Shown piece by piece: positions 5,822-61,936 of a stretch of 64,000 nt of DNA. Origin of the DNA: Bacteroidaceae bacterium (GTDB lineage Bacteria; Bacteroidota; Bacteroidia; Bacteroidales; Bacteroidaceae); the NCBI GenBank assembly GCA_017480685.1, contig JAFUSD010000002.1:14287-78286 (forward strand). Reading direction: 5' to 3'. Numbering within the stretch: position 1 is the stretch's first letter; each line of letters starts with the position of its first letter. Position numbers and translations under genes: made by a program. The notes beneath the pieces were generated by a model. That model was not told where the DNA came from. It made no database searches and worked only from the letters and a program-made list of their open reading frames with translations.

Positions 5822-5935
5822 ACCTCCCTCAAATGGGGGAGTGGTTCTATCCGGATGGCATCATCCTTCCGTCAAATGGGGGTGGTTCTATCTGGATGGC
5901 ATCATCCCCCTTTTGGGGGATAAGAGGGGGCTCTT
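5822..5935. repeat. GC-rich mosaic hairpin element, family copy A: a 43-bp unit x2 plus G5/C5 hairpins
   Basis: tcaaatggggg(a)gtggttctatc(c/t)ggatggcatcatcc occurs at 5829-5866 and 5872-5907. It is followed by the hairpin tccccc-tttt-ggggga. It lies directly after the CE8 stop codon (5936). Confidence 0.8.
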
Positions 5936-7246
5936 CTACTTAAAGGGGTACACCACCTCGGGGCTTCGTGGGCCGAGCCCGCCGTACCAGTTGGCACAGC
6001 GCACACTGAAGCATGCGCCTTCGGGTGCCGAGGTAATGGTGTAGGTGGGTTGGGTGGTGAATGCTATTATCTTGCGGTCGCGACACACGGCGTAGCATCC
6101 GGCTTCGGGGATGTCGTCCCACGTGATTACCTTGCCTTTGGCCTTGAGCAGTGGTGGGCGCACTTGCGCGGCTCGCTGGTCGGGGTGCCATCCGGGAAAC
6201 ACGCGGTCGATGGTGTATGCCTCGGCTTCCGAGTCGGTCAGCACGGGGTTGTATGCCACTTGCTGTTGCTGCCCCATCGGGTTTCTGAAGGTTGTGCGGC
6301 GTGCACTGAGGTCCACCTGTGCGAAGTGGCTGTCGGTGGTGCTGTATTCGGCAAACAGGGCCGGCATGGTGCCGTTCATCTCACACCATCCTTCGGGTGC
6401 GGGTGTTACGTCCATCGAGCAGTTGAGCCACACACACCGCGGCGCGTTTTTCCACGGGCGTCCCAGGTGGAAACGTCCGTCCTGCTCGGGCGAGCCCGAC
6501 ACGTAGCAGTCGGCAAACACATAGCCGTAGGGGCTGGTGGCAGCAGTGGCGGGTGCGGTGATGACATCGCGGTTGCCAGTATCGCCACGGGGCAGCAGGC
6601 GTATGTCGCAGTGGTTGAAGTAGATGGTTCCACCGCCGCAGATGAAGTCGACGGTGCCGCTTATCTTGCAGTCTTCCAGGTAGGTGGTGCCGCCATCGTT
6701 GGTGTAGTATGTGTCTTGTGTCGACAGCAGGCTCACGTTTCTCAGTATGTTGCCGCGGCAGTTCTTCTCGTTGAGCGCCACGGCTCGGTTGGCAAATGCC
6801 CGCGGGTCGTTCTTGTAGTTCGACCACAGCTCCAGGTCTTGTATGTATGTGCTGTCGGCACCCTTCAGAAACAACGTGCTCGTGATGCTGATTCCCTCGT
6901 GCCAAGGACAGTTCTCAATCTGTGTCGAGCCCATGCTCTCGCCTATGATGCTGGTGTTGGGAGCCGTGAGCGTGGTCATGGGGCTTGGAAACTCCACCCT
7001 CTGGCCGTTTTCTACCACAGTTATCATGTTGCCTTCGCCCTTGATGCGATAATACTGCGGATGTATGAAGATTCGGAACCGCTTCGTTTTGTCGGCACGA
7101 TTGTTGGCGGCATGTATGGCATCTACAAACCCGCCATCGCGCGGCACGATGAAGTCGTAGGTCCATTTCCCCTGCGCGCTGCATGTGGTGCCGCTGCTCA
7201 CTACTGCCATGAGCACTATGATTTTTGTGAGTAATGTCGTGGTCAT
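5936..7246 (-). CDS. Pectin methylesterase (CE8)
   Basis: I chose the internal ATG at 7246 (MTTTLLTKIIVLMAVVSSGTTCSAQ signal peptide) over the ORF-track start at 7390. Pectinesterase motifs QDTYY and GTVDFICGGG are present, with a beta-helix-type sequence. Confidence 0.85.
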   Translation of the reverse strand: MTTTLLTKIIVLMAVVSSGTTCSAQGKWTYDFIVPRDGGFVDAIHAANNRADKTKRFRIFIHPQYYRIKGEGNMITVVENGQRVEFPSPMTTLTAPNTSIIGESMGSTQIENCPWHEGISITSTLFLKGADSTYIQDLELWSNYKNDPRAFANRAVALNEKNCRGNILRNVSLLSTQDTYYTNDGGTTYLEDCKISGTVDFICGGGTIYFNHCDIRLLPRGDTGNRDVITAPATAATSPYGYVFADCYVSGSPEQDGRFHLGRPWKNAPRCVWLNCSMDVTPAPEGWCEMNGTMPALFAEYSTTDSHFAQVDLSARRTTFRNPMGQQQQVAYNPVLTDSEAEAYTIDRVFPGWHPDQRAAQVRPPLLKAKGKVITWDDIPEAGCYAVCRDRKIIAFTTQPTYTITSAPEGACFSVRCANWYGGLGPRSPEVVYPFK

Positions 7247-7273
7247 GTGTCCGAGTCTTTTGTAATCGTCATG

Positions 7274-7281
7274 CAAAGTTA
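7274..7281 (-). promoter_or_regulatory. -7 promoter box TAACTTTG upstream of the pectinesterase gene
   Basis: The minus strand reads ctgcTAACTTTGcatg about 28 nt upstream of the ATG at 7246. Confidence 0.5.
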
Positions 7282-7501
7282 GCAGGTTTATGAGAATAAT
7301 GCAAGTTTCAGACAGAAAAACTGGCGATTTCACCGTGCATTTTCTGCATTTCGCACCATTTCCTGGCAATTGGCAACTCCTTAAACCCAAATCAGCAAGA
7401 CATCTGAACTAAAAACAAAAGCTGTTTTCATCATAACGCTAATGACTGGTTTGGGTTAAACAACGGGTTTTGAAGCAATGCCCCTGTGCGGATTGACAAG
7501 C

Positions 7502-7582
7502 GAGGATATCCTTGCGGGTCGTTGAGGATATCCTCGCGGGCTGTTGAGGATATCCTCACAGGGTGTTGAGGATATCCTCGCC
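7502..7582 (+). repeat. 22-bp tandem array, GAGGATATCCTC-core family, ~3.5 units
   Basis: Units: gaggatatccttgcgggtcgtt / gaggatatcctcgcgggctgtt / gaggatatcctcacagggtgtt / gaggatatcctcgcc. Intergenic between the comM stop and the CE8 start. Confidence 0.95.
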
Positions 7583-7656
7583 AACAGGCACCCCGCCATT
7601 ATCCTAAAACCATAACGGTGTGTGGCTTGTTGATGGCCTGTCACCTCACTGCGCCG

Positions 7657-9204
7657 TCAGCGTTCAATCCAGCTTTCGCGGTCGAGGTTGCGATATCCGA
7701 TGGCTTCGGCTATATGCTGTGGCCGGATGTCGGGGGCAGCTTCGAGGTCGGCTATGGTACGTGCAACCTTGAGGATGCGGTCATAGGCTCGCGCCGAGAG
7801 GTTGAGCCGGCGCATGGCATCGCGGAGGCGGGTCGCACTCTGCTCGTCGAGCTGTGCATACTTATGCAGGAGCGAGGTAGTCATCTGGGCATTGCAGTGT
7901 ATGCCTTTCACACCTGCATAGCGCTCTTCCTGAATCTTGCGGGCAGCCACAACCCGCTGGCGTATGGTGGCGCTCGATTCTCCCTTCGGTGCATTGACCA
8001 TATCGTTGAACGGCACGCTCTCCACCTCCACCTGGATGTCGATGCGGTCCATGAGGGGCCCGCTGATGCGGTTCATGTAGCGCTGAATCTGTGTCGGGGT
8101 GCAGACGCAGGTATGGGTGGGATGGTGGAGCCAGCCGCACGGACATGGATTCATCGATGCCACAAGCATGAAAGAGCAAGGCATGGTGATGTTGTATTTG
8201 GCGCGGCTGATGGTGATGATGCGGTCCTCGAGCGGCTGACGCAGGGTTTCGAGTACCGATTTGGAGAACTCAGTGAACTCGTCGAGGAAGAGTACACCGT
8301 TGTGTGCCAGACATATCTCGCCAGGCATGAAGTTGGTGCCGCCACCTACGAGGGCTACATCGGATATTGTGTGATGTGGTGAGCGGAATGGGCGCTGGCT
8401 GATGAGCGATGTGTCGCGACCAATCTTGCCAGCGATGCTGTGTATTTGTGTGGTCTCAAGACTTTCGGACAACGAGAGCGGAGGCAGGATGGATGGCAGA
8501 CGTTTCGACATCATCGACTTGCCACACCCGGGGCTGCCCACAAGCAGAATGTTGTGGCCACCGGCTGCTGCCACCTCGAAGGCGCGTTTCACATTCTCCT
8601 GACCCTTCACCTCGTCGAAGTCGAAATCGAAGTTAGACTGCTGGGCATAAAACTCCTCGCGCGTGTTGACCTCGGTGGGTTCGATAAGGGTGGTGCCGCT
8701 GAGGAAACCTATCACGTCCTGCATGTGGTGTATGCCATACACCTTCAGACGGTTGACCACAGCGGCCTCGCGTGCGTTGTCGTCAGGTACGAACAAGCCT
8801 TCGTAGCCCATCTCGCGTGCTTTAATGGCAATTGGCAGTGCGCCTTTCACGGGTTGCACAGTGCCGTCGAGGCTCAACTCGCCCACAAACATGTAGCGAT
8901 GCAACTGGTCGGTCGGCACCTTGCCCAGCGATGCCATGATGCCGATGGATATAGGCAGGTCGAAGCCCGACCCTTCTTTCTTCACGTCGGCTGGTGCCAG
9001 GTTGACCACCACCTGCTTCATGGCCATCTTGTAGCCATTGGTCTGGAGCGATGAAAGCACTCGCTCCTGGCTTTCGCGCACCGCGCTGTCGGGCAGTCCC
9101 ACGATTGAGAAGCGGAACTGGGGATTGGTGGTGACGCTCACTTCGATGGTGATGGGCAGGGCTTCGAGGCCTTGCATGGTGGCGGATGACAATTTTGCAA
9201 TCAT
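7657..9204 (-). CDS. comM: YifB/ComM-family Mg-chelatase-like AAA+ ATPase
   Basis: 515-aa ORF. N-terminal Lon-protease-like domain (MIAKLSSATMQGLEALPITIEVSV), Walker A LLVGSPGCGKSM, and a C-terminal Mg-chelatase subunit ChlI-like region. Confidence 0.9.
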   Translation of the reverse strand: MIAKLSSATMQGLEALPITIEVSVTTNPQFRFSIVGLPDSAVRESQERVLSSLQTNGYKMAMKQVVVNLAPADVKKEGSGFDLPISIGIMASLGKVPTDQLHRYMFVGELSLDGTVQPVKGALPIAIKAREMGYEGLFVPDDNAREAAVVNRLKVYGIHHMQDVIGFLSGTTLIEPTEVNTREEFYAQQSNFDFDFDEVKGQENVKRAFEVAAAGGHNILLVGSPGCGKSMMSKRLPSILPPLSLSESLETTQIHSIAGKIGRDTSLISQRPFRSPHHTISDVALVGGGTNFMPGEICLAHNGVLFLDEFTEFSKSVLETLRQPLEDRIITISRAKYNITMPCSFMLVASMNPCPCGWLHHPTHTCVCTPTQIQRYMNRISGPLMDRIDIQVEVESVPFNDMVNAPKGESSATIRQRVVAARKIQEERYAGVKGIHCNAQMTTSLLHKYAQLDEQSATRLRDAMRRLNLSARAYDRILKVARTIADLEAAPDIRPQHIAEAIGYRNLDRESWIER

Positions 9205-9238
9205 GAGGCAGTGGGGGCAATTATGAGGGGCGGTGGAG

Positions 9239-10747
9239 CTATTCCTTGCGCCAGAATCCGTGGGTTAGGAGTATGAGTATGGGGAATATCTCGAGACGGC
9301 CGATGAGCATGAGCATGGAGCAGACTATCTTGCCAGGCGCACTGATGATGGCCCATGAATGGGCAGGCCCGTAGTACCCCATGGCAGGACCCACGTTGCT
9401 GAGCGAGGAGAGGGAGACACTGAGTGCCTCGGTGAAATCGTGGCGCAGCAAATTGTGGCCGTCGGTCATCTGTGATATATATGTGTGGTCGACTCCGAAG
9501 AGGATGAGGACGAAGGCCCCGATGAACATCGAACCGACGAACAGGGTGACGAATGCCAGCATGGTTTTCTGTATCGACGTGGGTATCACGTCGTTGCCTA
9601 CTTTCACGCCTGCCACGATGCGCGGATGCAGGATGCGACGGAATTCGCCTTGAAGCACACTCCACAAGATGGCCCAGCGGATGCACTTGAATCCACCCGA
9701 TGTGCTGCCCGAGCAGGCTCCGGCAAACATGAGGAACAGCATGATGGGCATGAGTATTTGTGGCCAGATGGTATAGTCGCACGAAGCAAAACCCGTGGTG
9801 GTCTGTATTGACACTACGGTGAATATCGACTGGCGGAACGAGAGCTCGATATCGCCTTGGTTGTTGTGTATGGTGAGCAGGAGGGTGCAGATGATTGTGG
9901 ACAGGAACACTATGAAGGCATAAATGCGCAGTTCGGGATTGTGGAACAACCGGTGGAGGTGTCCGCGGAAGATGCTGTAGTAAAGCAGTGTGTAGTTCAC
10001 ACCCGAGAGAAACATGAAGAGTGTGGTGACATACTCGATGGCGGCTGAGTTCCATTGATCGTGGAAGAAAGCAGAATGTGGAGAGAAACCGCCTGTGGCT
10101 GTGGTGGTCATCGATATGTTGACGGCATCGAATACACTCATGCCACATACCACCAGCGAGAGGATGCAGAGGAGTGTGAGTGTGAGGTAGACCGACCCAA
10201 TCCACTTCACAGCCACGCTGATACGCGGGTGAATCTTGTCGTGGAGCGGTCCGGTCGATTCGGCAGCGAAGAGTTTCACTTCGCCTACCCCGAATGCCGG
10301 CAGTATGGCAAGGGTGAAGAAGATTATTCCGATACCGCCTATCCATTGTGTCATGCTTCGCCAAAAGATGATGCTGCGAGGCAGGATGTCGATTTTGTCG
10401 ATGATGGTGGCGCCGGTCGATGTGAATCCCGACATGGCTTCGAAGAATGCGCTGGCAAAATCGGGCACGCTGTCGGTCATGATAAATGGTATGGTACCTA
10501 TTGCGGTGAAGATAATCCATACGAGCGATACTATGATATATCCGTCGCGACGACCCAGTCGTTTGCCCTCACCGTGGCCTACGAGTCGGCCTGCGAGCCA
10601 TAGTATGATGCTCAGCACTGTAGTGTAGACGTATGGCATGATGTCTTCATCGTATATGATGGCTACGACCATGGTGATGAGCAGTATGCCTGCCTCGATG
10701 AAGAGGAGCATGCCGAGCACGTTGAATATTTGTCGCCAGTTGATCAT
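9239..10747 (-). CDS. trkH: TrkH-family potassium uptake membrane protein
   Basis: 502-aa polytopic membrane ORF with repeated TrkH pore-loop-type segments (TSTGAT, TTTGFAS, GSTSGG). Located downstream of trkA. Confidence 0.9.
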   Translation of the reverse strand: MINWRQIFNVLGMLLFIEAGILLITMVVAIIYDEDIMPYVYTTVLSIILWLAGRLVGHGEGKRLGRRDGYIIVSLVWIIFTAIGTIPFIMTDSVPDFASAFFEAMSGFTSTGATIIDKIDILPRSIIFWRSMTQWIGGIGIIFFTLAILPAFGVGEVKLFAAESTGPLHDKIHPRISVAVKWIGSVYLTLTLLCILSLVVCGMSVFDAVNISMTTTATGGFSPHSAFFHDQWNSAAIEYVTTLFMFLSGVNYTLLYYSIFRGHLHRLFHNPELRIYAFIVFLSTIICTLLLTIHNNQGDIELSFRQSIFTVVSIQTTTGFASCDYTIWPQILMPIMLFLMFAGACSGSTSGGFKCIRWAILWSVLQGEFRRILHPRIVAGVKVGNDVIPTSIQKTMLAFVTLFVGSMFIGAFVLILFGVDHTYISQMTDGHNLLRHDFTEALSVSLSSLSNVGPAMGYYGPAHSWAIISAPGKIVCSMLMLIGRLEIFPILILLTHGFWRKE

Positions 10748-10792
10748 TACTTCAATTCCTAAGTCTTTCAGTCGTTCAACACTTTAAGATTC

Positions 10793-10905
10793 TAATCCTT
10801 CAATCCTTTAAGGTTTTTAATCCTTCAATCCTTTAAGGTTTTTAATCCTTCAATCCTTTAAGGTTTTTAATCCTTCAATCCTTTAAGGTTTTTAATCCTT
10901 CAATC
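10793..10905. repeat. 25-bp perfect tandem repeat x4.5 filling the trkA-trkH intercistronic spacer
   Basis: taatccttcaatcctttaaggtttt occurs at 10793, 10818, 10843 and 10868, plus a 13-nt partial copy that abuts the trkA stop codon (10906-10908). Degenerate copies continue to about 10750. Confidence 0.95.
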
Positions 10906-12279
10906 TTAATTAAAATATCGTGCCAGTCGTTTCAGTGTCTGGCTGGTGCAGAATACCACGACGCGGTCGCCGCCTTGCAGCCTTGTGCTTCCCGACACCA
11001 GTTCGCCACGGCCATGACGTATCATGCCTCCTATGTTCACTTCGGATGGCAGGCCTATCTCCATGATGGGCTTCTTGGTGGCGCGCGAGCCGTCTTTGAC
11101 TACAAATTCGGCCACGTCGGCATCGGCCACGGTGAGCATCTTCACGTTGTTGACATCGGCCTTGAGCAGCATTTGGTAGATGTGGCTGGCTGCCAGCATC
11201 TTTTTGTTGATGACGGTACCCACGTCGAGCGACTCGGCCATATCGAGGTATGCCAGGTTTTCCACTTGGGCATAGGTGTTGCAGATGCCGTTGCGGCGTG
11301 CTGCCACGCATGCCAGTATGTTTTTCTCGTCGTTGTTGGTGAGGGCTGCAAAGGCTTCTATGTGGTTGTAGCCTTCGTCGCGAAGCAGGTCGAGGTCGTA
11401 GCCGTCGCCGTTGATTATCATGGTGCGCGATTTTACCATGCGACCCAGTTCTTCGCATCGAGCGGCATCGCGCTCAATGATTTTGAGCGACATATTGTCG
11501 GGAATTTCGCTGTCGGTGCGCACGGCCAGTTTGCCTCCGCCTATAATCATCACGTGCTTCACCTGGGGGTAGTTGTCCTTGCCTGCAAGGTGGCGTATGC
11601 TGGTGATTTCGGCCTTGGTGGTCATGAAGAAGACGAGATCGTCGTCCAGTATGCGTTCGTCGCCACTTGGAATGATGGTATCGCCGTCGCGCTTGATGGC
11701 TACCACATGGAATTTGTGTCCGTCCATGCTTATCTCCTTCAGTGTGTGACCAAGCAGCAGGTTTTCGTTTTTCGGTTTGCCGGTGCGGTCGAATGGGTTG
11801 AGCTCATGCATCTTGACGCTAATCAGCACGAGGTCGCCGTCGAAGTCGATGTATTGGCGTACCCAGCTATATTGTGCCGAGGCTGCTATCTCTTTGCCTG
11901 CCAGCATTTCGGGATATATGAGTGAGCTGATGCCCATGTTTTCAAACAGGTAGCGGTGGGATGATTGCATGTATTCGTAGTTGTCGATGCGTGCTACGGT
12001 GCGTTTGGCTCCCAGTTGCTTGGCCAGCATACAGCATGTGAGGTTTTCGCTCTCGTGTGGTGTGACCGCAATAAACAGGTTGGCGCTTTCGATGCCAGCG
12101 CGTTTCAAGGCATCGATCGATGTAGGCGATGCCACCAATGCCATGATGTCGAGGTCGCTGTTGAGCTTGGTGAGCTTGTCCTCGTCGGGGTCGATGAGGA
12201 CAATGTCGAGGTTTTCGTTTGAGAGCATCCTGGCAAGGTGGGTTCCCACTGCGCCGGCTCCGGCTATCACTATTTTCAT
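10906..12279 (-). CDS. trkA: Trk system potassium uptake protein TrkA (two RCK/NAD-binding modules)
   Basis: 457-aa ORF. MKIVIAGAGAVGTHLA and a second IIGGGKLA Rossmann motif give the typical tandem TrkA-N/TrkA-C layout. Confidence 0.9.
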   Translation of the reverse strand: MKIVIAGAGAVGTHLARMLSNENLDIVLIDPDEDKLTKLNSDLDIMALVASPTSIDALKRAGIESANLFIAVTPHESENLTCCMLAKQLGAKRTVARIDNYEYMQSSHRYLFENMGISSLIYPEMLAGKEIAASAQYSWVRQYIDFDGDLVLISVKMHELNPFDRTGKPKNENLLLGHTLKEISMDGHKFHVVAIKRDGDTIIPSGDERILDDDLVFFMTTKAEITSIRHLAGKDNYPQVKHVMIIGGGKLAVRTDSEIPDNMSLKIIERDAARCEELGRMVKSRTMIINGDGYDLDLLRDEGYNHIEAFAALTNNDEKNILACVAARRNGICNTYAQVENLAYLDMAESLDVGTVINKKMLAASHIYQMLLKADVNNVKMLTVADADVAEFVVKDGSRATKKPIMEIGLPSEVNIGGMIRHGRGELVSGSTRLQGGDRVVVFCTSQTLKRLARYFN

Positions 12280-12302
12280 GGGTTGTGAGTGTTTTGGGGG
12301 GG

Positions 12303-14246: not shown

Positions 14247-14297
14247 AGCCCACGGTGCTTAGCGGCTGGCAGGCTGGCACATACTACTGTCAATTTG

Positions 14298-14721: not shown

Positions 14722-15057
14722 CCAGCGGAGCTCTGTCGCAACTTGAGGACCGACGAGCTGACGTCTCACATACCAGTGGTAGTCATCACGGCCAAGGCTA
14801 CGGATGCCGACCGCCGTAGTAGGCATCGAGGCAGGAGCAGATGCATATCTCTCCAAGCCATTCAACTCCGACGAACTGTTTGCACGCATCAGTCAGCTGC
14901 TGGAACAACTCGGGCCGCATGAGACGCAAATATGCTCTCCAACCCTATACGCACGGGTGGTGGCAATGCCGTCGGGGGCTGCGGCGTAAGATTAACGCCA
15001 TCACAGGCGTGTCGCCCAAGAAACTCATCATCGACATCCGACAATACTATTACAAAT
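14722..15057 (+). pseudogene. Degenerate remnant of an HTCS C-terminus (receiver domain plus AraC HTH), split over three frames
   Basis: Frame 1 reads LTSHIPVVVITAKATDADR. Frame 2 reads VVGIEAGADAYLSKPFNSDELFARISQLLEQ. Frame 3 reads INAITGVSPKKLIIDIRQYYYK*. These parallel the REC and HTH segments of the intact HTCS at 53647-57582 (KAGADAYLPKPFD..., LKALTGQTPSQFIRSIRL). Confidence 0.55.
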
Positions 15058-15118
15058 AGTAAATAAATAGTAAATCGTCAAATAATTCATAAATAGTAAA
15101 TCTCATAGTTTATACCTG
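15052..15118. repeat. AAAT(A/C)GT heptamer tract (AT-rich family copy)
   Basis: acaaatagtaaataaatagtaaatcgtcaaataattcataaatagtaaatctcatagtttatacc. The end resembles the 34331-34415 tract (gtaaatcccataggttcctatcc). Confidence 0.75.
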
Positions 15119-21663: not shown

Positions 21664-21743
21664 TGAGGATATCCTCACAGGCCCGCAAGGATATCCTCAC
21701 AGGCCTGCAAGGATATCGTCAACGCGTGTCGAGGATATCGTCG
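21664..21743 (-). repeat. 22-bp tandem array, GAGGATATCCTC-core family, ~3.5 units, reverse orientation
   Basis: Reverse complement reads gacgatatcctcgacacgcgtt / gacgatatccttgcaggcctgt / gaggatatccttgcgggcctgt / gaggatatcctca. Lies in the divergent rhomboid / rpsO intergenic region. Confidence 0.9.
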
Positions 21744-23631: not shown

Positions 23632-23645
23632 CAGCCGATTAGTTT

Positions 23646-23679
23646 TTAGGATATAAATGAATTTAGGATATAAATGAAA
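23646..23679 (+). repeat. 17-bp tandem duplication spanning the SulP start codon, creating a 6-codon uORF
   Basis: ttaggatataaatgaat / ttaggatataaatgaaa. The first ATG (23657) reads MNLGYK*, and its TGA overlaps the main ATG (23674) as ATGA. Confidence 0.85.
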
Positions 23680-25383
23680 AAGAAAACGAACATGACAAAG
23701 GTATATCAACCCAAGTTCTTCCACGTCTTTCAGAAAGGCTATTACAATAAACAGAAGTTCACCTCCGACCTCATAGCCGGAATCATCGTAGGCATCATTG
23801 CACTGCCGCTTGCCATTGCGTTTGGAATAGCAAGCGGAGTAAGTCCCCAGCAAGGCCTCATCACAGCCATCATAGCAGGCTTCATAGTGTCGGTCTTCGG
23901 CGGCAGCCGCTTCCTCATAGGCGGACCCACAGGCGCCTTCATAGTAATAGTAGCCGGCATCGTAGCACAATACGGCCTGCAAGGACTCACCATTGCCACC
24001 ATCATGGCAGGCGTGTTTCTCATAATCATGGGCCTGTGCCGCATGGGTGCAATCTTCAAGTTCATACCTTATCCCATCGTCGTGGGCTTCACATCGGGCA
24101 TCGCCGTCACCATATTCTCAACCCAGGTGAAAGACTTCCTGGGCATCACGGCCGCCATCCCGTCGGGATTCCTGCCACAGTGGGGAGCATACTTCGCACA
24201 CATCTCCGACATCAACCCAGCCGAGACACTGATGAGCCTTGGCTGCCTGCTGGTCATCATCGTGTGGGGACGCTTCGTAAAAAAGATTCCCGGCTCGCTC
24301 ATCGCCCTCATCCTGGGTACAGCCGCCTCGGTGTTGCTGGCCAGGTTTGGCAACATACAGCTGGCAACAATCGGCACTAAATTCCCTGAACTGGCACAAG
24401 GACTCCCCATGCCATCGCCCGTGGCACCAACCATGGACTATGACACCATCAAGAGCCTTGTATCGCCGGCATTCACCATAGCAGTGCTCTGCGCAATAGA
24501 GTCGCTGCTGGCAGCCATGGTAGCCGACGGTGTGACCGGAAAACACCACGACTCAAACACCGAACTCATAGGACAGGGCCTGGCCAACGTGGTAACACCG
24601 CTCTTTGGCGGCATACCCGCCACCGGAGCCATTGCACGCACCATGGCTAACATCAACAACGGCGGAAAATCGCCCGTGGCAGGAGTGATACACGCCGTCG
24701 TACTACTGCTCATCTACCTGTTCCTAATGCCCTATGCAGTTTACATCCCACTCTCATGCCTGGCTGCCATACTCATCATGGTGGCATACAACATGAGCGA
24801 ATGGCGCACATTCCGCTACCTGCTGCGCGGCGACAAGAGCGATGTGGCAGTCCTCCTGCTCACCTTCTTCCTCACCGTGGTGGTAGACCTCACCGTCGCA
24901 ATCGAAGTGGGAATGGTGCTGGCCGTAGCACTGTTCGTACGCCGAGTGATGGAAACATCCGACATAACCGTGATTGAAGAAGACACACTGTTGGCCACAG
25001 AAAACGACGAAGTGACCCATCCCGACGACATCGAACACCTCGACATCCCGCGCGGAGTGGAAGTGTACGAGGTGAACGGACCGTTCTTCTTCGGCCTGGC
25101 CAGCAAGTTCGAAGAGTTCAACCGCATGAGCGATGAAAATGTGAAGGTGAGAATCATACGCATGAGAAAAGTGCCGTTCATAGACTCCACCGGAGTGAAC
25201 AACCTCCGCAACCTGTGCGAACGTACACGCCGCCGCGGTGTACAAGTCGTGTTGTCGGGTGTAAACGACAAGGTCAGACACACACTCGAAAAGTATAGAA
25301 TAGACCAACAACTCGGCGCCGATAACATACAACCACACATATCGTTGGCACTGAAGCAGGCACGCAAGCATCTGCACGAATGA
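23674..25383 (+). CDS. SulP-family anion (sulfate/bicarbonate) permease with a C-terminal STAS domain
   Basis: 569-aa ORF. Polytopic SulP core (IAGIIVGIIALPLAIAFGIASG) and a STAS tail (VRIIRMRKVPFIDSTGVNNLRNL). Confidence 0.9.
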   Translation: MKKKTNMTKVYQPKFFHVFQKGYYNKQKFTSDLIAGIIVGIIALPLAIAFGIASGVSPQQGLITAIIAGFIVSVFGGSRFLIGGPTGAFIVIVAGIVAQYGLQGLTIATIMAGVFLIIMGLCRMGAIFKFIPYPIVVGFTSGIAVTIFSTQVKDFLGITAAIPSGFLPQWGAYFAHISDINPAETLMSLGCLLVIIVWGRFVKKIPGSLIALILGTAASVLLARFGNIQLATIGTKFPELAQGLPMPSPVAPTMDYDTIKSLVSPAFTIAVLCAIESLLAAMVADGVTGKHHDSNTELIGQGLANVVTPLFGGIPATGAIARTMANINNGGKSPVAGVIHAVVLLLIYLFLMPYAVYIPLSCLAAILIMVAYNMSEWRTFRYLLRGDKSDVAVLLLTFFLTVVVDLTVAIEVGMVLAVALFVRRVMETSDITVIEEDTLLATENDEVTHPDDIEHLDIPRGVEVYEVNGPFFFGLASKFEEFNRMSDENVKVRIIRMRKVPFIDSTGVNNLRNLCERTRRRGVQVVLSGVNDKVRHTLEKYRIDQQLGADNIQPHISLALKQARKHLHE

Positions 25384-27165: not shown

Positions 27166-27245
27166 CACACTGAAAGCAGTACAATCACACTGAAAGCAAT
27201 ACAATCACACTGAAAGCAGTACAATCACACTGAAAGCAATAAATA
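27166..27245 (+). repeat. 20-bp tandem repeat x4 occupying the predicted 5' UTR of the DUF1599 gene
   Basis: cacactgaaagca(g/a)tacaat x4, with alternating g/a variants (units 1 and 3 are identical; 2 and 4 match until the last unit degenerates). Confidence 0.95.
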
Positions 27246-33026: not shown

Positions 33027-33132
33027 GCCCCTCTTCTCCCGCCCACAGCAATGCTTCGCCTCCTGGCAAAAGCTCTATAACGAATGTCGTTCAGGCGCGG
33101 CATACACCTTCTCTTATTTTTTTCGCGCGTGT

Positions 33133-33233
33133 GAGAATATCCTCGCGGGCTGTTGAGGATATCCTCGCGGGCTGTTGAGGATATCCTTGCGGGCTGTTGA
33201 GGATATCCTCGCAGTGTGCCAGAGGATATCGAT
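33133..33233 (+). repeat. 22-bp tandem array, GAGGATATCCTC-core family, ~4.5 units
   Basis: gagaatatcctcgcgggctgtt / gaggatatcctcgcgggctgtt / gaggatatccttgcgggctgtt / gaggatatcctcgcagtgtgcca / gaggatatcgat. Lies between the dnaG stop and the pyrE promoter. Confidence 0.95.
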
Positions 33234-34057: not shown

Positions 34058-34320
34058 AAGGGGAACCCCTCTCTTATCTCCCCCAAGGGGAGAGGATACC
34101 ATCCGGATGGATAAAGCTCCTCCCCTTCGGGGAGGCGGGGGAGAGGTTAAAGGGAATAGAAGGGGAGTTAAAGGGAAGTTAAAGGGACGAATGTCACCAT
34201 CCGGGGAGAAGACCCCCTCCCCCTGCGAGTACTCCCCCTTTCAGGTGGGAGAGTCCATCCGGATGGAAATAACCTCCCCTAACCCCTCCCAAGGAGGGGA
34301 ATTCCATCCGGATGGTAATA
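34058..34320. repeat. GC-rich mosaic hairpin element, family copy B (largest): three CCATCCGGATGG palindromes plus several G5/C5 stem-loops
   Basis: Contains ctcccc-caa-ggggag, cctcccc-ttcg-ggggagg and cccctcc-caa-ggagggg hairpins. ccatccggatgg appears at ~34094, ~34253 and ~34300. gttaaaggga occurs x3. It starts right at the pyrE stop. Confidence 0.85.
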
Positions 34321-34330
34321 ACCAAATAAT

Positions 34331-34415
34331 TAAATAGTACATAAATCGTAAATAGTAAATCGTCAAATCGTAAATAACAATAAATCGTAAAATCGTAAAT
34401 CCCATAGGTTCCTAT
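34331..34415. repeat. AAAT(C/A)GT heptamer tract (AT-rich family), about 9 units
   Basis: taaatagtacataaatcgtaaatagtaaatcgtcaaatcgtaaataacaataaatcgtaaaatcgtaaatcccatagg. Confidence 0.85.
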
Positions 34416-48176: not shown

Positions 48177-48298
48177 AAGGATATCCTCAACGCACCGCAA
48201 GGATATCCTCAACACACCGCAAGGATATCCTCAACGCACCGCAAGGATATCCTCAATGCATTGCAAGGATATCCTCAACGCACCGCAAGGATATCCTC
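48177..48298 (-). repeat. 22-bp tandem array, GAGGATATCCTC-core family, 5.5 units (largest), reverse orientation
   Basis: The forward strand reads aaggatatcctcaacgcaccgc x5.5, with cores at 48177, 48199, 48221, 48243, 48265 and 48287. The reverse complement is gaggatatccttgcggtgcgtt. It starts 1 nt after the flippase stop codon. Confidence 0.95.
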
Positions 48299-48348
48299 AC
48301 GTTTACTCATACCACCTTACAGCCGGTGTCGTTTCATAAGAATCGTGT

Positions 48349-49447: not shown

Positions 49448-49511
49448 GTTATGATTCAGTCGAAATATATGTTATGATTCAGACGAAATATGTTATGATT
49501 CAGTCGAACAG
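49448..49511. repeat. ~22-bp tandem triplication that includes the stop codon and last codons of the PfkB kinase gene
   Basis: gttatgattcagtcgaaatatat / gttatgattcagacgaaatat / gttatgattcagtcgaacag. The third copy supplies ...LFD-TGA of the 49500-50450 gene. Confidence 0.9.
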
Positions 49512-53440: not shown

Positions 53441-53477
53441 GTTATAATTATATGTTTTGATGTAATGTTTCAATTTG

Positions 53478-53485: not shown

Positions 53486-53491
53486 CGAAAT

Positions 53492-53516: not shown

Positions 53517-53646
53517 GGTAATAATTTGCATTTGGGCCCATGTTTTTGGATACATAGGGCTTAATCTATCTGTTTCGGGGTCTTTAGTATGTTGCACGTA
53601 AGGCCGTGACCTGCCTTGTGTTGCTGCCCCCTGCTGCTGCATTGTT

Positions 53647-57582: not shown

Positions 57583-57818
57583 GATATATGATGAGTGATG
57601 ATTAATTAATATGATTAAGCAATAAGCGGGAGAATTTCCCCCTCATTCTGCAGCTGCGGGGCGACGAAAACGGCACGCACACACGTCAAGCCTGCTGAAA
57701 AGATACGAAATAATACGATATGCAGGTTGACTAAAGCACAACAAAATGCCCCGAAAGCCCGAAAAAAACGGCAAAAGCAAGAGCATGCATCCACCTGCCG
57801 GTATCGATGGCAGGAAAC

Positions 57819-57919
57819 AACGATATCCTCGCGGGCCGTTGACGATATCCTCGCAGGGCGTTGACGATATCCTCGCGGGCCGTTGACGATATCCTCGCAG
57901 GGCGTTGACGATATCCTCA
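57819..57919 (+). repeat. 22-bp tandem array, variant GACGATATCCTC core, 4.5 units with a 44-bp higher-order alternation
   Basis: aacgatatcctcgcgggccgtt / gacgatatcctcgcagggcgtt / gacgatatcctcgcgggccgtt / gacgatatcctcgcagggcgtt / gacgatatcctca. Lies in the divergent HTCS / thioesterase intergenic region. Confidence 0.95.
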
Positions 57920-58109
57920 TTTTTCACCACCCATATCAGTGCACCAAAACACTACCACCTACTGACTGCACCGACACCCACGCCGCCGCCCGCTGCGCCC
58001 CCCGTCGTTTTTACACCCGTTATGAAGAAAACGGACACTGACAGTCATGTTTTTTTGCCTCTGCATAAAAATAATACGCAATAAACATCCAGCATAATGA
58101 ATTATTTCG

Positions 58110-58117
58110 TACCTTTG
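58110..58117 (+). promoter_or_regulatory. -7 promoter box TACCTTTG upstream of the thioesterase gene
   Basis: tatttcgTACCTTTGtctcg, 37 nt upstream of the ATG at 58154. Confidence 0.55.
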
Positions 58118-58153
58118 TCTCGCCTACCTCCATAAGGAGCAGGCACACACGCC

Positions 58154-58576
58154 ATGCTTACACAAGAAGAATGCAACCTACTGAACCACCACACCGCCGG
58201 CACCATGATGCAGGCGCTGGGCATGACATTCGTACCTACCGACGACGATGCCGTGGTGGTAGACATGCCCATATCGCCGGCCTGCAGGCAACACCAAGGC
58301 ATAGTTCATGGCGGAGCCTACCTGGCACTGGCCGAGACGGCAGCAGGAGCCGGCTCGATACACGTGGCAGGCACAGACTGCAGCGTGTGCGGCATAGAAG
58401 TGAGCGGCAACCACCTCGCCATGTCGCCCACAGAGGGAGTGGTGAGGGCCAGGGCAACACTGCTCTCGGCAGGACGGACAATACACGTCTGGAACGTAGA
58501 TATTGCCGATGAAACCGGACAAACACTGTCGACTGCAAGAGTGGTGAACCGCATAAATAAAGTAACAGACAATTGA
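58154..58576 (+). CDS. PaaI-family hotdog-fold acyl-CoA thioesterase
   Basis: 140-aa ORF. NHHTAGTMMQALGMTFV...QGIVHGGAYLALAETAAG is the typical PaaI/YdiI pattern. Confidence 0.85.
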   Translation: MLTQEECNLLNHHTAGTMMQALGMTFVPTDDDAVVVDMPISPACRQHQGIVHGGAYLALAETAAGAGSIHVAGTDCSVCGIEVSGNHLAMSPTEGVVRARATLLSAGRTIHVWNVDIADETGQTLSTARVVNRINKVTDN

Positions 58577-58640
58577 CAACATACGACAGCCATCCAGATG
58601 ATGGACACATAAACAAACAACCAAGTCCAAATATATATAT

Positions 58641-58943
58641 ATGATGAAGAAAACAATCACGACACTCATAGCCGCAGCAATTGCAATGACGGCATGTGTG
58701 AACGACGGCCAAAAGACGCATGACGACAGACCAACCGACACTGGCGGCGAGGTGATAGGCATCGTGGGCGACGGCACGTCGATGCATGCCCTCGAACTCA
58801 TAAGCCTCGACACAGGCGACTCACTCTACTTCACATTCGAAGTGAACCAGACCGACGGCATCGAAATAGGCGACACAGTGCGTGTGACCTACGACTCATG
58901 CTCAGGCGACGAGGCTGCAGTCAGTATCGAGAAAATAAACTGA
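58641..58943 (+). CDS. Small hypothetical lipoprotein
   Basis: 100-aa ORF with lipobox AIAMTAC. No recognisable domain. Confidence 0.55.
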   Translation: MMKKTITTLIAAAIAMTACVNDGQKTHDDRPTDTGGEVIGIVGDGTSMHALELISLDTGDSLYFTFEVNQTDGIEIGDTVRVTYDSCSGDEAAVSIEKIN

Positions 58944-58959
58944 ACACACCCCAGAACAC

Positions 58960-61707
58960 ATGAGACAACCATTGCCGATAACATCGCTGTGCTGCATGCT
59001 CTGCATGATGCTCATAACCACATACGCGCATGCCGGCGACCCCACCACCCCCGTGCTGCCAGTGCAGGAAAAAGTATACATGCACTTCGACAACAACTGC
59101 TACTTCCAGGGCGACACCATCTGGTATAAAGCCTACGTAGTGCTGGCCGACGACAACAGCCCCGAACCACTCAGCCGAGTGCTCTACACCGAACTGCTCA
59201 ACGAACAGGGATACCTCATGGAACGCCAGCAACTGGTGGTAGACGAGCACGGACAAGCCAACGGATGCTTTGCCGTGAGCGACACGGCATTCGCCGGATA
59301 CTACGAAGTGAGAGCATACACCAAGTGGATGCTCAACTTCGGATTCGAAGTGATACCATCGTGGAACTCACGAAACCTCACCGCTGCCAACCGCGAAGCA
59401 ATACTGAACGAAGAAAGAGACAACGAGACACAATATGCCCTGACACGCACCAACCTGGACCGCGGATGGGTGAAGTATGACGAAGAAGGCAACCCCATCT
59501 TCTTCAACGACGAGTACGACTCCGGATTCAACATCGACAGCGACGTGATGACAACCAACTACCGCCTCTACAACAACCTCTACTCAAGAGTGATACCAAT
59601 ATACACACGTCCAGACAGTGCACAAAACTACATGCGGCGCATCATACCAGTGAAAATAACAATGGGCGACTACGAAGTGAGATGGAAAACACCCGACTTC
59701 AACATAAACTTCTACCCCGAAAGCGGAATGCTCATTGACGGAATGCCATGCCGAGTGGCATGGGAAGCCGTAAACCAAAAACTGGAACGACTCAACATAA
59801 CAGCACTGCTCGAAGAAGAAGGCGAAGTGGTAGACACACTACGCCCAATCCATGCAGGACGCGGCATGTTCACATTCACACCACACAGAGGCAGGAAATA
59901 CAGAGTGACATACAGCACCCCCGACAAAAACTTCTCATTCAACCTGCCCGAAATAGAACGCGACGGCGGACGCATCATCGTGGAACAAGACAAGGAAGCA
60001 GTATACTTCGACGTGGCACAACACTTCAGCACACCACACGACCTCCAACTCAGCATCTTCTGCCGAGGCAGGAAAATAGCAACATACAAAGTAGACAAAT
60101 CGCCACGATGGGCAACCGCAACCTACCTCGACGACCTGCCGGAAGGAGTGAACCAAGTAGTGCTACACGACAGCACCGGCACCGTCTTTGCCGACCGACT
60201 CTTCTTCGTCAACAAACTATACGAGTCGAAAGGAAAAATCACAATAGCAGGAATAGCCAACCGCCCATACCAACCACTCGAACACATACGCCTCAACCTG
60301 CTCGCCACCGACCCACGCGGCAAAGCACTGGCAGGACAGACCATGTCGGTGGCAGTGCGCGATGCAACACAACTCTCACCATCATTCGCCACCGGCAACA
60401 TCATGACCAACCTGCTCCTCGAGTCAGAAATCAAAGGATTCGTAGAAATGCCCGACTACTACTTCGAGGCCGACGACGAACACCACCGCCAGGCACTCGA
60501 CCTGCTGCTCATGGTACAAGGATGGCGACGATATGACTGGCACGACATAGTGAACCCCGAAGCATCCAACCTGCGATACCTGCCAGAACAAAAGATGGTA
60601 ATATTCGGCGAAGCAAAGGCACTGCGCAAGCAACTGTTCAAGAAAGGCGAACGCAAACTACAAATTGCATGCTCAATACTCAACATGAACGACGACCTGC
60701 AAGAAGGAGACTACTACAGGTTCAAGGGAGTGGTCGAAGCCGACACCAACGGACGATTCTCATTCGCATACGACCCCTTCTACGGATACGTCACACTGGC
60801 ACTGAGAGCCAAGTTTGTAGACAAGATAGAGAAAAACAAGAAGAAATACGACATGCTCACCCACGACCCGCAGATATTCCTGCGCAAGCAATACTTCTAT
60901 CCCCAGGGACTCAAAGAATACAGCTGGTATGAGACAAACAGCCCCGACAGCGTGAAAGACAAGAAAATAACATGGGAGGACATATCAGAAGACATATACG
61001 CATCCGACTGGATTCCGCAGGTCACAATCAAAGCATCACGACGTGCACACGCACAGCGCAACCGCAACAAGCCCGTATACACCACATCCATCATCGATTT
61101 CGTCAACGACATGTGGGACCAGGGATACTATAACACAAACGACCTGCTCGACTACAGAGAGACTTCGCTGGATGCAATCATCAGTTTCTTCCACAGCTAC
61201 ACCGTCCTGCAATACATGACATCCATGAACAACGAAGAGGTGGGATGGACCGAGGTAGACGGAGTAGGCCAGTATTCATTGGTGCAAGCCAACAACAACT
61301 TCCTCCCCATATTGCGCAACATAAGCGTAGTGACCGACGCGCCACGCAGGCCGACGCCCTACGAGCACTACCACCAAGACAGGAAAGCAGGCAATGGGCA
61401 GACATACGGTGTGGACCGTGTAATCATGGTGACCACCTATCCCAACGACAGCACACACATCATTCGCGGACGCGAATACAACTTCCAAGGATTCACACGC
61501 CCGGTAGAATACTACAATCCCGACTACAGCCACGCCTCCCTGCCCGAGATTCACGACTACCGACGCACCCTGTACTGGAACCCAAACGTCACGACCGACC
61601 GCTACGGGCAAGCCACCATAGAGTTCTACAACAACTCTGTATGCACCCTCATCGATGTCTCGGCCGAAGGCATCAGCAAGTACGGGCAGTTCCTGGTAGG
61701 GGAATAA
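58960..61707 (+). CDS. Large secreted protein with an MG2/alpha-2-macroglobulin-like N-terminal module; function unknown
   Basis: 915-aa ORF with a signal peptide. KVYMHFDNNCYFQGDTIWYKAYVV...GYYEVRAYTKWMLNF resembles the N-terminal bait-less MG2-type modules of large Bacteroidota hypothetical proteins. The family call is tentative. Confidence 0.6.
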   Translation: MRQPLPITSLCCMLCMMLITTYAHAGDPTTPVLPVQEKVYMHFDNNCYFQGDTIWYKAYVVLADDNSPEPLSRVLYTELLNEQGYLMERQQLVVDEHGQANGCFAVSDTAFAGYYEVRAYTKWMLNFGFEVIPSWNSRNLTAANREAILNEERDNETQYALTRTNLDRGWVKYDEEGNPIFFNDEYDSGFNIDSDVMTTNYRLYNNLYSRVIPIYTRPDSAQNYMRRIIPVKITMGDYEVRWKTPDFNINFYPESGMLIDGMPCRVAWEAVNQKLERLNITALLEEEGEVVDTLRPIHAGRGMFTFTPHRGRKYRVTYSTPDKNFSFNLPEIERDGGRIIVEQDKEAVYFDVAQHFSTPHDLQLSIFCRGRKIATYKVDKSPRWATATYLDDLPEGVNQVVLHDSTGTVFADRLFFVNKLYESKGKITIAGIANRPYQPLEHIRLNLLATDPRGKALAGQTMSVAVRDATQLSPSFATGNIMTNLLLESEIKGFVEMPDYYFEADDEHHRQALDLLLMVQGWRRYDWHDIVNPEASNLRYLPEQKMVIFGEAKALRKQLFKKGERKLQIACSILNMNDDLQEGDYYRFKGVVEADTNGRFSFAYDPFYGYVTLALRAKFVDKIEKNKKKYDMLTHDPQIFLRKQYFYPQGLKEYSWYETNSPDSVKDKKITWEDISEDIYASDWIPQVTIKASRRAHAQRNRNKPVYTTSIIDFVNDMWDQGYYNTNDLLDYRETSLDAIISFFHSYTVLQYMTSMNNEEVGWTEVDGVGQYSLVQANNNFLPILRNISVVTDAPRRPTPYEHYHQDRKAGNGQTYGVDRVIMVTTYPNDSTHIIRGREYNFQGFTRPVEYYNPDYSHASLPEIHDYRRTLYWNPNVTTDRYGQATIEFYNNSVCTLIDVSAEGISKYGQFLVGE

Positions 61708-61826
61708 ACCGAAGAAGGGGAGTGAAAAGTGAAGACTGAAGAGTGGAAAATCTGAGCAACTCACTCCGCCTCACACACCACAAAGGAGAAAGGAATCGTA
61801 ACTCCGCACGGAAAAGAATGGAGTAT

Positions 61827-61936
61827 TGGTAGATTTACCAATAACAAACTGTAGATGTACTAATATAAAACCGTGGATGTACTAATATAAAACCGTGGAT
61901 GTACTAATATAAAACCGTGGATGTACAAATAATAAA
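61827..61936. repeat. 22-bp tandem repeat, 2 perfect plus 3 degenerate units, upstream of tdk; followed by an AAATAGT heptamer tract (61937-61968)
   Basis: ccgtggatgtactaatataaaa at 61871 and 61893. Variants at 61849 (ctgtagatg...) and 61915 (...gtacaaataataaa), plus a degenerate copy at 61827. Then tggtaaatagtaaattagtaaatagtaaataag. Confidence 0.9.

Follow-up and report, generated by a model that had tools for sequence, protein, structure and literature searches.

Tandem repeats with a dominant 22-bp unit at high density in the genome of an uncultured Prevotellaceae bacterium

Passages of PMC8161180, which cite J Bacteriol 2020 202:e00229-20, describe bacterial tandem repeats of constant size (20–23 nt) and variable sequence as an enigmatic class. 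The same passages extend this class of Subirana and Messeguer for Bacillus and propose the protein-docking hypothesis of these authors. In Porphyromonas gingivalis, the minisatellite-MITE BrickBuilt forms one family with a 23-nt unit at 19 loci (Klein et al. 2015, PMC4596501), with a conserved leader and tail and terminal inverted repeats (PMC4596501). A further group of dispersed repeats consists of the REP/BIME/REPIN elements with RAYT transposases (PMC3733652). Our literature search on Prevotella or Bacteroidales repeats of 22 bp found nothing.

The stretch of DNA analysed here (the window) is 64 kb of the genome of an uncultured rumen/gut Prevotellaceae bacterium (G000). It carries the following arrays:

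143–188, no strand: 20-bp x2.3 array where 55 bp separate two minus-strand genes, with a genome-unique unit (TRF, blast).
5825–5907, no strand: hairpin plus CCATCCGGATGG element in two tandem copies (41–43 bp, 90% match), between an arabinofuranosidase start and a pectinesterase stop.
7502–7581, no strand: GAGGATATCCTC-family array, 22 bp x3.7 (TRF).
10775–10905, minus strand: 25-bp x5.3 array (95%) of one decayed, four perfect and one partial unit, filling the trkA–trkH intercistronic spacer.
15053–15102, no strand: 26-bp x1.9 array from a dispersed AAATAGT/AAATCGT heptamer family.
21666–21742, no strand: GAGGATATCCTC-family array, 22 bp x3.5.
23645–23678, plus strand: perfect 17-bp x2 duplication in the SulP permease gene leader, preceded by a TACCTTTG -7 box and followed after 13 nt by the conserved ATG at 23692.
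27166–27245, plus strand: 20-bp x3.7–4 array that follows the -7 box TACCTTTG immediately and stops 8 nt short of the ATG of a DUF1599 gene.
33132–33212, no strand: GAGGATATCCTC-family array, 22 bp x3.7 (TRF).
34146–34187, no strand: GTTAAAGGGAA 11-bp x3.9 array, a dispersed-family member (TRF).
34327–34401, no strand: heptamer (TAAATCG/TAAATAG) array upstream of a 966-aa gene (TRF).
48177–48299, no strand: GAGGATATCCTC-family array, 22 bp x5.6 (TRF).
49448–49511, minus strand: 21–22-bp x2.8 array with the pfkB stop on one side and the start of an OTCase-like gene on the other.
57820–57918, no strand: array of the GACGATATCCTC family whose higher-order period is 44 bp, x2.2 (TRF).
61832–61936, plus strand: 22-bp x4.7 array (GATGTACTAATATAAAACCGTG) ahead of the thymidine kinase gene (tdk).
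61927–61967, plus strand: AAATAGT heptamer array adjoining the 22-bp array, with its end 6 nt from the tdk start (TRF).

Each of the six tandem repeats listed in the original prediction was recovered by TRF, as were the five GAGGATATCCTC arrays in the window; the array at 143–188 and the heptamer arrays at 15053, 34342 and 61927 came in addition (TRF). The trkA–trkH array begins 18 bp before the start given for it earlier (10793), and in the TRF output the 27166 array ends at 27238/45 and the 49448 array at 49508. Searches of the window for known RNA families returned no Rfam match.

With 16 non-overlapping arrays of score at least 50 in 64 kb (TRF), or 250/Mb, the window is typical of its own genome, in which TRF finds 962 arrays, or 339/Mb. 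Across the whole genome, arrays cover 2.5% of the sequence and occupy 47% of the intergenic gaps of at least 100 bp. Nine congeners pooled gave 161/Mb. The density is not comparable with that of other Bacteroidales, where seven families pooled gave 64/Mb (46 arrays in 721 kb by TRF), and a third-order Markov simulation produced 5/Mb, so that the early suspicion of a repeat density beyond chance is borne out. Chance, ordinary slippage without bias, or an artefact of short-read MAG assembly is an already disfavoured explanation, which we find scarcely credible. Copy numbers were read from short-read assemblies, in which arrays can collapse. The source genome is a 288-contig, 90%-complete MAG, contig ends cut into or adjoin 36 of its arrays, and the trkA array at 10775 is interrupted by an N-gap in one public scaffold; such features would suit an artefact. 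However, the same arrays occur with distinct SNP-marked alleles in assemblies made independently, in different studies and with different assemblers, and a spike in unit length at 22 bp is common to the nine congeners and absent from the other families, which were processed identically.

This spike means that one unit length dominates regardless of sequence, genome-unique units included. Ordinary genomes hold few VNTR loci, with a broad size spectrum. The peak of 20–25 bp that had been anticipated is present here, sharper than predicted and at exactly 22 bp, which is about two helical turns. Genome-wide, TRF assigns period 22 to 274 arrays, period 21 to 89 and period 44 to 26. Counting perfect duplications without any threshold yields 131 of 22 bp, 24 of 21 bp, 7 of 23 bp and 8 of 20 bp, and among intergenic arrays whose unit occurs at no other locus there are 40 of 22 bp, 14 of 21 bp and 8 of 23 bp. 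Period 22 is restricted to the genus, accounting for 58 of the 183 arrays in the nine congeners and for 0 of the 46 in the seven other Bacteroidales families, in keeping with the lineage-specific propensity first proposed. The spectrum of indels between G000 and the sister genome G024 has a bump at 21–22 bp, but at 83% mean identity the alignments are too noisy for it to serve as evidence. Perfect duplications that look nascent (2–3 copies, unrelated flanks) are few, with ten of 22 bp, seven of 21 bp, four of 20 bp, one of 23 bp and three of 24 bp. Eight of the ten 22-bp cases run 3–12 bp past two full units, which fits microhomology-mediated slippage rather than a fixed staggered cut; target-site duplication, left when an element with a 22-bp stagger inserts and is excised, is disfavoured on the same grounds.

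Variation within the species was read from conspecific contigs, that is, metagenome contigs from other samples encoding identical neighbouring proteins. The 10775 array has 2, 4 or 5 units among contigs encoding identical TrkA. Among conspecific contigs, the 27166 array has 4, 3+1 or 2+1 units, the 61832 array has 2, 3 or 4 core units, and the 48177 array, of the GAGGATATCCTC (GATATC) family, has 4, 6 or 7, while the 49448 array has 3 units in five contigs and 1 in a sixth. Since copy number differs between contigs with identical neighbouring proteins, these are true VNTRs. All but one of the indels of at least 5 bp between conspecific contigs fall inside arrays, and their sizes equal one unit or a multiple of it (21/22, 25, 44 and 75 bp), except for a scaffold-gap artefact (L204). 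The arrays are not invariant across strains, as whole-unit differences at four non-family arrays of the window and one GATATC array attest.

Sister species differ in array copy number, in array presence and even in unit sequence. Neither the 27166 nor the 49448 array is found in G024, G017 or G014. Upstream of tdk, G024 has a 23-bp x4 array with a unit largely different from that of the 61832 array, and G017 has a single copy of the G024 unit. G024 carries a GACTGCGCACTC 22-bp array at the position corresponding to 7502–7581, has no array in the gap orthologous to that at 21666–21742, and is missing both copies of the element at 5825–5907; upstream of the SulP gene it has a different repeat, with none in G017. 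The trkA–trkH junction holds other short repeats in several related lineages. Compared in this way, the outgroup genomes retain single-copy or array-free ancestral states, and the polarity of one-copy and three-copy states within the species was taken from outgroup gap lengths only. Because the arrays vary between strains by whole units, and between sister species as well, the idea of using them as MLVA markers is sound.

How far the units are related bears on their origin. Blast of the window units shows those of 25, 17, 20 and 22 bp to be unique in the genome, and likewise that of 20 bp at 143. The 43-bp unit, in contrast, belongs to a dispersed CCATCCGGATGG-type element and is not private, and the 49448 unit forms a second array at C152:5531-5587. 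At least five families are present in the genome (GATATC, TTTTGCTGCG, GGACTGACAGTCC, CGTACnnnGTACG and AAATTATTAAATTT), of which GATATC comprises 166 arrays, along with 40 singleton arrays at 22 bp. At about 20 loci outside the listed arrays, a AAATTATTAAATTTACGTCGA core lies in a composite palindromic element flanked by inverted 22-bp arrays. GAGGATATCCTC arrays occur in 0 of 40 other genomes, and congeners carry other units.

Such dispersal could reflect common descent from mobile 22–23-bp minisatellite elements, BrickBuilt-like MITEs, so that seemingly unrelated units would be diverged old copies whose period was preserved by homogenisation within each array. The several dispersed families (GATATC, the AAATTATTAAATTTACGTCGA core, GGACTGACAGTCC and others) speak for such descent, as do three or four singletons recognisable as decayed family members and a 44-bp x2.7 array of G024 that is wholly missing from G000. 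The orthologous tdk-upstream arrays, of 22 bp in G000 and 23 bp in G024, have only about 8 bases in common, and the two loci with the 49448 unit have unrelated flanks, which point the same way. Yet 37 singleton units are no more similar to the main families than shuffled controls, and they show no excess of dyad symmetry. We found no leader, tail or recurring flanks in the genome around the private 17-, 20-, 22- and 25-bp arrays of the window. Moreover, the tdk-upstream unit is present as a single native copy in G017, one conspecific contig has one copy at 49448, and the 27166 array stands where G024 has a non-repetitive 20-bp stretch. On balance, we consider descent of the arrays from mobile elements distinctly unlikely.

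In the palindrome families, GAGGATATCCTC here and GAGTGCGCACTC in relatives, a 12-bp core is conserved at strict 22-bp spacing, and at orthologous arrays the core can be swapped (TGCGCA to GATATC or TACGTA) with the palindrome retained. This conservation implies a sequence-specific reader or conversion between loci for at least that subset, so that a purely mutational account is incomplete. Purging by restriction-modification was rejected as the cause of the TGCGCA to GATATC swap, as TGCGCA is not avoided in the genome (O/E 0.90).

Extended to all arrays, a reader of this kind could be an abundant DNA-binding protein that polymerises at a two-turn (~22 bp) pitch, with selection keeping the arrays as functional chromatin or regulatory elements. 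The period of two helical turns, the perfect and strictly spaced cores that remain palindromic when swapped, and the occupancy of nearly half of the larger gaps are what such docking or nucleoid arrays would show. We nevertheless think this explanation unlikely, because singleton arrays share no common motif or excess dyad symmetry, and a sequence-blind protein cannot see the periodicity of the underlying sequence. Arrays are also freely gained, lost and resized between conspecific strains and are missing from outgroups at the same sites, and their spread over divergent, tandem and convergent gaps follows gap length. This last pattern likewise led us to reject a terminator or 3′-end function.

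Placement had been singled out for comparison, and it is strongly skewed: the non-ORF sequence, about 14% of the DNA, holds 72% of all arrays and 92% of the non-family 22-bp ones. Arrays within ORFs mostly have periods that are multiples of 3, and the commonest singleton period there is 21, the in-frame neighbour of 22. The original prediction placed the arrays beside start or stop codons or promoter boxes. They do adjoin start and stop codons, because they fill short intergenic gaps, but they are no more often close to TAnnTTTG -7 boxes than under random placement within the same gaps, and on this lack of enrichment a promoter association was rejected.

Contingency loci typically have 1–8-bp units within ORFs or in promoter spacers of surface or virulence genes. 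The arrays had been put forward as such loci, at which copy-number change would be selected for modulating the expression of the adjacent gene. The 23645 and 27166 arrays each follow closely on a -7 box, the 10775 array makes up the entire trkA–trkH spacer, where several related lineages have other short repeats, and copy number varies between strains. However, the genes whose leaders, spacers and 3′ regions hold the arrays have housekeeping roles (trk, tdk, sulP, OTCase-like) and are not surface or virulence genes, and we found no array in a promoter spacer or ORF, between promoter boxes or in frame, so positioned as to switch a gene. About half of the larger gaps bear arrays, which argues for a genome-wide process over locus-specific selection. 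We judge a contingency role very improbable.

The account towards which we lean is that these are real, fast-evolving and mostly non-coding minisatellites, made by length-measuring duplication, turned over by strand slippage and largely tolerated. A length-measuring process would duplicate about 22 bp of ordinary unique sequence in tandem, probably through slipped-strand or template-switch events between short microhomologies some 22 nt apart, constrained by a putative replisome or DNA-binding component. Whole units would then be gained and lost by slippage or unequal exchange, which would leave interior units identical while end units decay. Some units, such as those of the palindrome-bearing families, may also spread or homogenise across loci. 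Selection would purge frameshifting arrays from genes, so that arrays accumulate in gaps, 5′ leaders and intercistronic spacers, where they may be largely tolerated and not needed. We identified no 22-bp-measuring enzyme or replisome feature, and we know of no precedent for a 22-bp ruler in slippage.

We read the constant unit size as a signature of how the repeats are made and not of what reads them. A bolder and more tentative possibility is that the genus has a genuine molecular ruler, a putative replisome-linked or dedicated activity that writes ~22-bp duplications into arbitrary sequence, and that this activity, or one coupled to it, makes palindromic cores uniform over hundreds of loci (GAGTGCGCACTC in one species, GAGGATATCCTC in its sister). 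If so, the repeats of constant size and variable sequence reported from bacteria would be marks left by a DNA-processing mechanism not yet described, and not functional elements. The lineage is favourable for this problem in its very sharp 22-bp spike and extreme array density, and its sister species and many conspecific contigs allow births, unit-step changes and core swaps to be read directly. The data tilt from a size needed for function towards a size imposed by how repeats arise. In practice, the loci can serve as strain markers for rumen and gut Prevotellaceae, and the arrays are a likely source of MAG contig breaks in the group, with copy numbers that short-read assemblies may have collapsed.

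Several described systems share features with these arrays. A CRISPR array was rejected, as the units run head-to-tail without spacers and the 10-bp semi-variable segment of the GATATC family, at more than 150 loci, is far too short. The arrays resemble REP/BIME/REPIN elements in being abundant, species-specific intergenic repeats, and the palindrome-bearing families recall clustered REPs, but the units here are strictly head-to-tail at a fixed pitch and singleton units are non-palindromic. Mobilisation by REP/RAYT was rejected, since PF01797 (Y1/RAYT transposase) had no match in the 90%-complete genome while controls matched. Like classical VNTR/MLVA loci, the arrays differ between strains by whole units, a polymorphism that fits slipped-strand mispairing. 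BrickBuilt also has a Bacteroidales host, intergenic head-to-tail arrays without spacers (23-nt there, 22-bp here), strain-variable copy number and a unit with conserved and variable positions, and its flanking modules have a parallel in the composite element at about 20 loci elsewhere in this genome, outside the listed arrays. Unlike BrickBuilt, the non-GATATC arrays of the window have private units and private flanks, and the genome holds hundreds of arrays with dozens of unrelated units.

The arrays match the published and unexplained constant-size, variable-sequence class of Subirana and Messeguer, of which they form an extreme further member. As far as the passages on that class in PMC8161180 describe it, both have many non-coding arrays per genome with a dominant unit near two helical turns that is not a multiple of three, both combine species-specific families with unique arrays of equal length, and both include arrays of doubled length (44 bp here, 40–41 nt there). 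In both, conservation between strains is partial and array length is seldom kept. Going by the same passages, which do not mention Bacteroidota, the present case differs in its host, an uncultured Prevotellaceae genus, in its modal unit (22 here, 20–21 there) and in its very high density. To the class as those passages present it, this genome adds array births polarised by outgroups, natural populations polymorphic in unit steps, and orthologous arrays with swapped cores.

Tandem Repeats Finder (TRF) recovered from the window all six arrays named in the original prediction and also the five GAGGATATCCTC arrays, and the array sequences were additionally inspected by eye. Sixteen (16) arrays of the window reach a TRF score of at least 50 without overlapping, a density of 250/Mb.

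Arrays in the window besides the GAGGATATCCTC arrays (TRF)
143-188: 20 bp x2.3, absent from the prediction
5825-5907: 41-43 bp x2
10775-10905: 25 bp x5.3
23645-23678: 17 bp x2, perfect
27166-27238: 20 bp x3.7
49448-49508: 21-22 bp x2.8
61832-61936: 22 bp x4.7
15053, 34342 and 61927: heptamer arrays, absent from the prediction

In this the window does not stand out from the rest of its genome, that of an uncultured member of the Prevotellaceae from metagenomes of ruminant or gut origin: the 2.83-Mb assembly (288 contigs, 51% G+C, window on contig C210) contains 962 non-overlapping arrays, which correspond to 339/Mb and to 2.5% of the sequence. A third-order Markov simulation with matching composition yields 5/Mb, placing the density well above chance as claimed. 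With ORFs defined as 120 codons or more, 72% of arrays fall outside ORFs, in roughly 14% of the DNA, and one or more arrays are present in 47% of the intergenic gaps that span at least 100 bp.

Identical TRF analyses were run on sampled DNA from nine congeners and seven other Bacteroidales families. The density of the host genome is unlike that of other Bacteroidales (339/Mb vs. 64/Mb), in agreement with a lineage-specific phenomenon. Repeat units differ by congener (e.g., TCACTCGAGTGA in G004, TTCTCTGACCAGG in G011 and G001, and GAGTGCGCACTC in G024, G014 and G017), and none of 40 other genomes yielded GAGGATATCCTC arrays.

Array density and share of period 22 in sampled DNA (genome or group; arrays/Mb; period 22)
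G024, same genus; 335; 15/59
G017, same genus; 258; 12/24
G011, same genus; 210; 7/21
G001, same genus; 190; 5/19
G019, same genus; 180; 5/18
G014, same genus; 120; 7/10
G003, same genus; 87; 1/16
G004, same genus; 70; 3/7
G008, same genus; 45; 3/9
Nine congeners pooled; 161; 58/183
Seven other Bacteroidales families pooled, 721 kb; 64; 0/46

The expected peak in unit length between 20 and 25 bp lies at exactly 22 bp (274 arrays genome-wide, vs. 89 at 21 bp and 26 at 44 bp). It persists among intergenic arrays when the palindrome-bearing GATATC family (166 arrays) is set aside (108 at 22 bp, 48 at 21, 21 at 20 and 9 at 23), and when perfect tandem duplications with two or more exact copies are counted without a threshold (131 at 22 bp, 24 at 21, 12 at 24, 8 at 20 and 7 at 23), where 45 of the 131 at 22 bp lack GATATC. 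The peak is independent of sequence, because it is also seen in singletons, whose unit has no other genomic locus at 75% identity or more (40 intergenic arrays at 22 bp vs. 14 at 21 and 8 at 23), and because the similarity of 37 intergenic 22-bp singleton units to the main families does not exceed that of shuffles, with 3-4 exceptions. The same 37 units show no excess of dyad symmetry (mean best arm 3.57 bp vs. 3.42 bp shuffled). Within ORFs, the commonest singleton period is 21, the in-frame neighbor of 22, followed by 24 and 18.

Within the window, the units of the 25-, 17-, 20- and 22-bp (61832) arrays, like the 20-bp unit at 143, have no second genomic occurrence. The 49448 unit forms a second array at C152:5531-5587 within unrelated flanks. 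The 43-bp unit is a dispersed hairpin plus CCATCCGGATGG element, of which 5825-5907 holds two tandem copies; this dimer is missing from the sister genome G024. The REP-like element itself (CCATCCGGATGG with a GC-rich hairpin, roughly 40-60 bp) also occurs at 34086-34330 and at many loci genome-wide, often adjoining heptamer (AAATAGT/AAATCGT) tracts that precede genes.

G024 is the closest genome, with 93-97% nucleotide identity around trkA and an 83% average over aligned samples. Both genomes carry the 25-bp trkA-trkH array, as four diverged units in G024 and as one diverged plus four perfect units in the host. At 27166, G024 has a non-repetitive stretch of about 20 bp in place of the array, directly behind a conserved -7 box, and the congeners G017 and G014 have no array at this site; the 49448 array is missing from all three. 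Upstream of tdk, G024 has a 23-bp x4 array whose unit has only about 8 bases in common with the host's 22-bp unit, G017 has one copy of that 23-bp unit, and G014 has no array. Upstream of sulP, a different repeat occurs in G024 and none in G017. Conversely, arrays of G024 traced to the host had the same units in other copy numbers, a 22 bp x2.7 array corresponded to a single copy, and a 44 bp x2.7 array to nothing.

Variation within the species was assessed on contigs from independent samples in which the TrkA, Tdk, DUF1599 or OTCase-like protein matches exactly (95-100% nucleotide identity). Rather than being invariant, five window arrays have unit-number alleles, which bears out their suggested use as MLVA markers.

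Unit-number alleles among conspecific contigs
trkA-trkH, 25 bp: 2, 4 or 5 units
Upstream of tdk, 22 bp: 2, 3 or 4 core units
27166, 20 bp: 4, 3+1 or 2+1 units
49448, 22 bp: 3 units in five contigs, 1 unit in a sixth
48177, GATATC family: 4, 6 or 7 units

Across about 93 kb of alignment, all conspecific indels of at least 5 bp lie within arrays, except for one 12-bp event in a gene. Two events, one of 108 bp that is artefactual and a neighboring one of 22 bp, adjoin the N-gap of one scaffold (L204) exactly at the trkA-trkH array; the remaining array indels have the sizes of array units (21/22, 25, 44 and 75 bp). As this gap illustrates, short-read assemblies can mis-size arrays; that the copy-number polymorphism is nonetheless real is supported by SNP-marked alleles, such as the SNP-distinct tdk-upstream alleles found in several samples, which recur independently. 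In the host assembly, contig ends fall within 60 bp of 36 arrays; minisatellites thus likely cause MAGs to fragment, and the true arrays may be longer than assembled.

Density, the 22-bp peak and strain variation all favor the overall interpretation of a lineage-specific propensity for minisatellites. That arrays turn over by slipped-strand mispairing or unequal exchange is observed: alleles differ by whole units, and interior units are perfect whereas those at the ends have decayed. As to the constant size, we favor a generating process that would measure length and so set it, the measuring step being what we infer, over a reader requiring that size. Singleton units have nothing in common for a protein to recognize, nascent-like duplications in unrelated flanks already cluster at 20-22 bp, and the commonest singleton period inside ORFs is the in-frame 21 bp; moreover, outgroups carry single-copy or non-repetitive ancestral states, and arrays are gained and lost freely at housekeeping loci. 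The 22-bp duplications could be born by slippage between microhomologies: 8 of 10 nascent 22-bp arrays reach 3-12 bp past two full units, an overhang that fits such slippage instead of a fixed staggered cut.

Substantial weight is left on rival or mixed explanations, mainly because palindrome cores evolve in concert. Eleven GAGTGCGCACTC arrays of G024 could be mapped to the host, where six counterparts in the same position are GA(G/C)GATATCCTC arrays, one is a GAGTACGTACTC variant whose symmetric changes retain the palindrome, one is a different element, and three sites have nothing.

Orthologous arrays with swapped cores in the host genome
Window 7502-7581
C204:17119-17257
C3:31641-31811
C237:18099-18429
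C65:13652-13828
C196:2955-4102
C186:7498-7615

The 22-bp pitch and spacer type are unchanged in these arrays, and a GCGAGTGC relic is left at the edge of one. Loci of the palindrome families thus change in concert throughout the genome, implying for this subset either conversion between arrays or a partner that is specific to the sequence. Restriction pressure was rejected as the cause of the swap, as TGCGCA is not avoided in the host (O/E 0.90). Separately, CATATG is strongly under-represented (152 vs. 689 expected, O/E 0.22; 0.40 in the G024 sample), suggesting an NdeI-type restriction system in the lineage, and hexamers containing CTAG or GATC are also rare in absolute numbers.

The genes beside window arrays are housekeeping genes (trkA/trkH, SulP permease, DUF1599, pfkB, OTCase-like, tdk and glycoside hydrolases). 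Arrays do adjoin start and stop codons as proposed, because they fill short gaps, and their spread over divergent, tandem and convergent gaps tracks gap length. The proposed promoter-box association did not hold, with no enrichment of arrays within 30 bp downstream of TAnnTTTG -7 boxes (3, 4 and 9 observed vs. 5.3, 4.3 and 9.4 expected). An Rfam search found no known RNA families in the window, and nothing yet supports a role as contingency loci. In the sulP leader, where the conserved start is ATG at 23692, the 17-bp duplication yields an out-of-frame 6-codon mini-ORF (ATG 23657, TGA 23675-23677) overlapping an in-frame alternative ATG at 23674. The trkA-trkH spacers of five other Prevotellaceae/Bacteroidaceae lineages (L087, L091, L092, L093 and L110) carry unrelated short tandem repeats of 7, 11, 18, 18 and 27 bp, mostly purine-rich on the mRNA strand; this junction has gained repeats more than once, that at 10775-10905 among them.

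The window's private arrays lack the spacers of CRISPR, and they show neither palindromy nor, in their genome, a Y1 transposase as in REP/RAYT systems. The nearest described Bacteroidales element is the 23-nt BrickBuilt minisatellite-MITE of Porphyromonas gingivalis (PMC4596501), whose common leader or tail the private arrays lack. Further dispersed 21-22-bp families exist outside the window, and the closest to a BrickBuilt-like MITE in the host is a composite palindromic element, also present in G024, in which four degenerate 21-bp AAATTATTAAATTTACGTCGA units make up a core of about 90 bp and inverted 22-bp TTTTGCTGCGAGTGCG-type arrays stand on either side.

Composite element, examples from about 20 intergenic loci outside the window
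C6:6776-7075
C163:1336-1665
C285:1198-1423
C3:19963-20188

Subirana and Messeguer describe bacterial tandem repeats of constant size and variable sequence, which they term enigmatic (PMC8161180, citing J Bacteriol 2020;202:e00229-20). The likeness extends to many non-coding arrays whose single unit length is close to two helical turns, to species-specific families, several in number, alongside unique arrays of equal length, to double-length related arrays, and to partial conservation between strains. Repeats of this kind are already described but mechanistically unexplained, and the phenomenon is a new, very dense and lineage-wide case of them.
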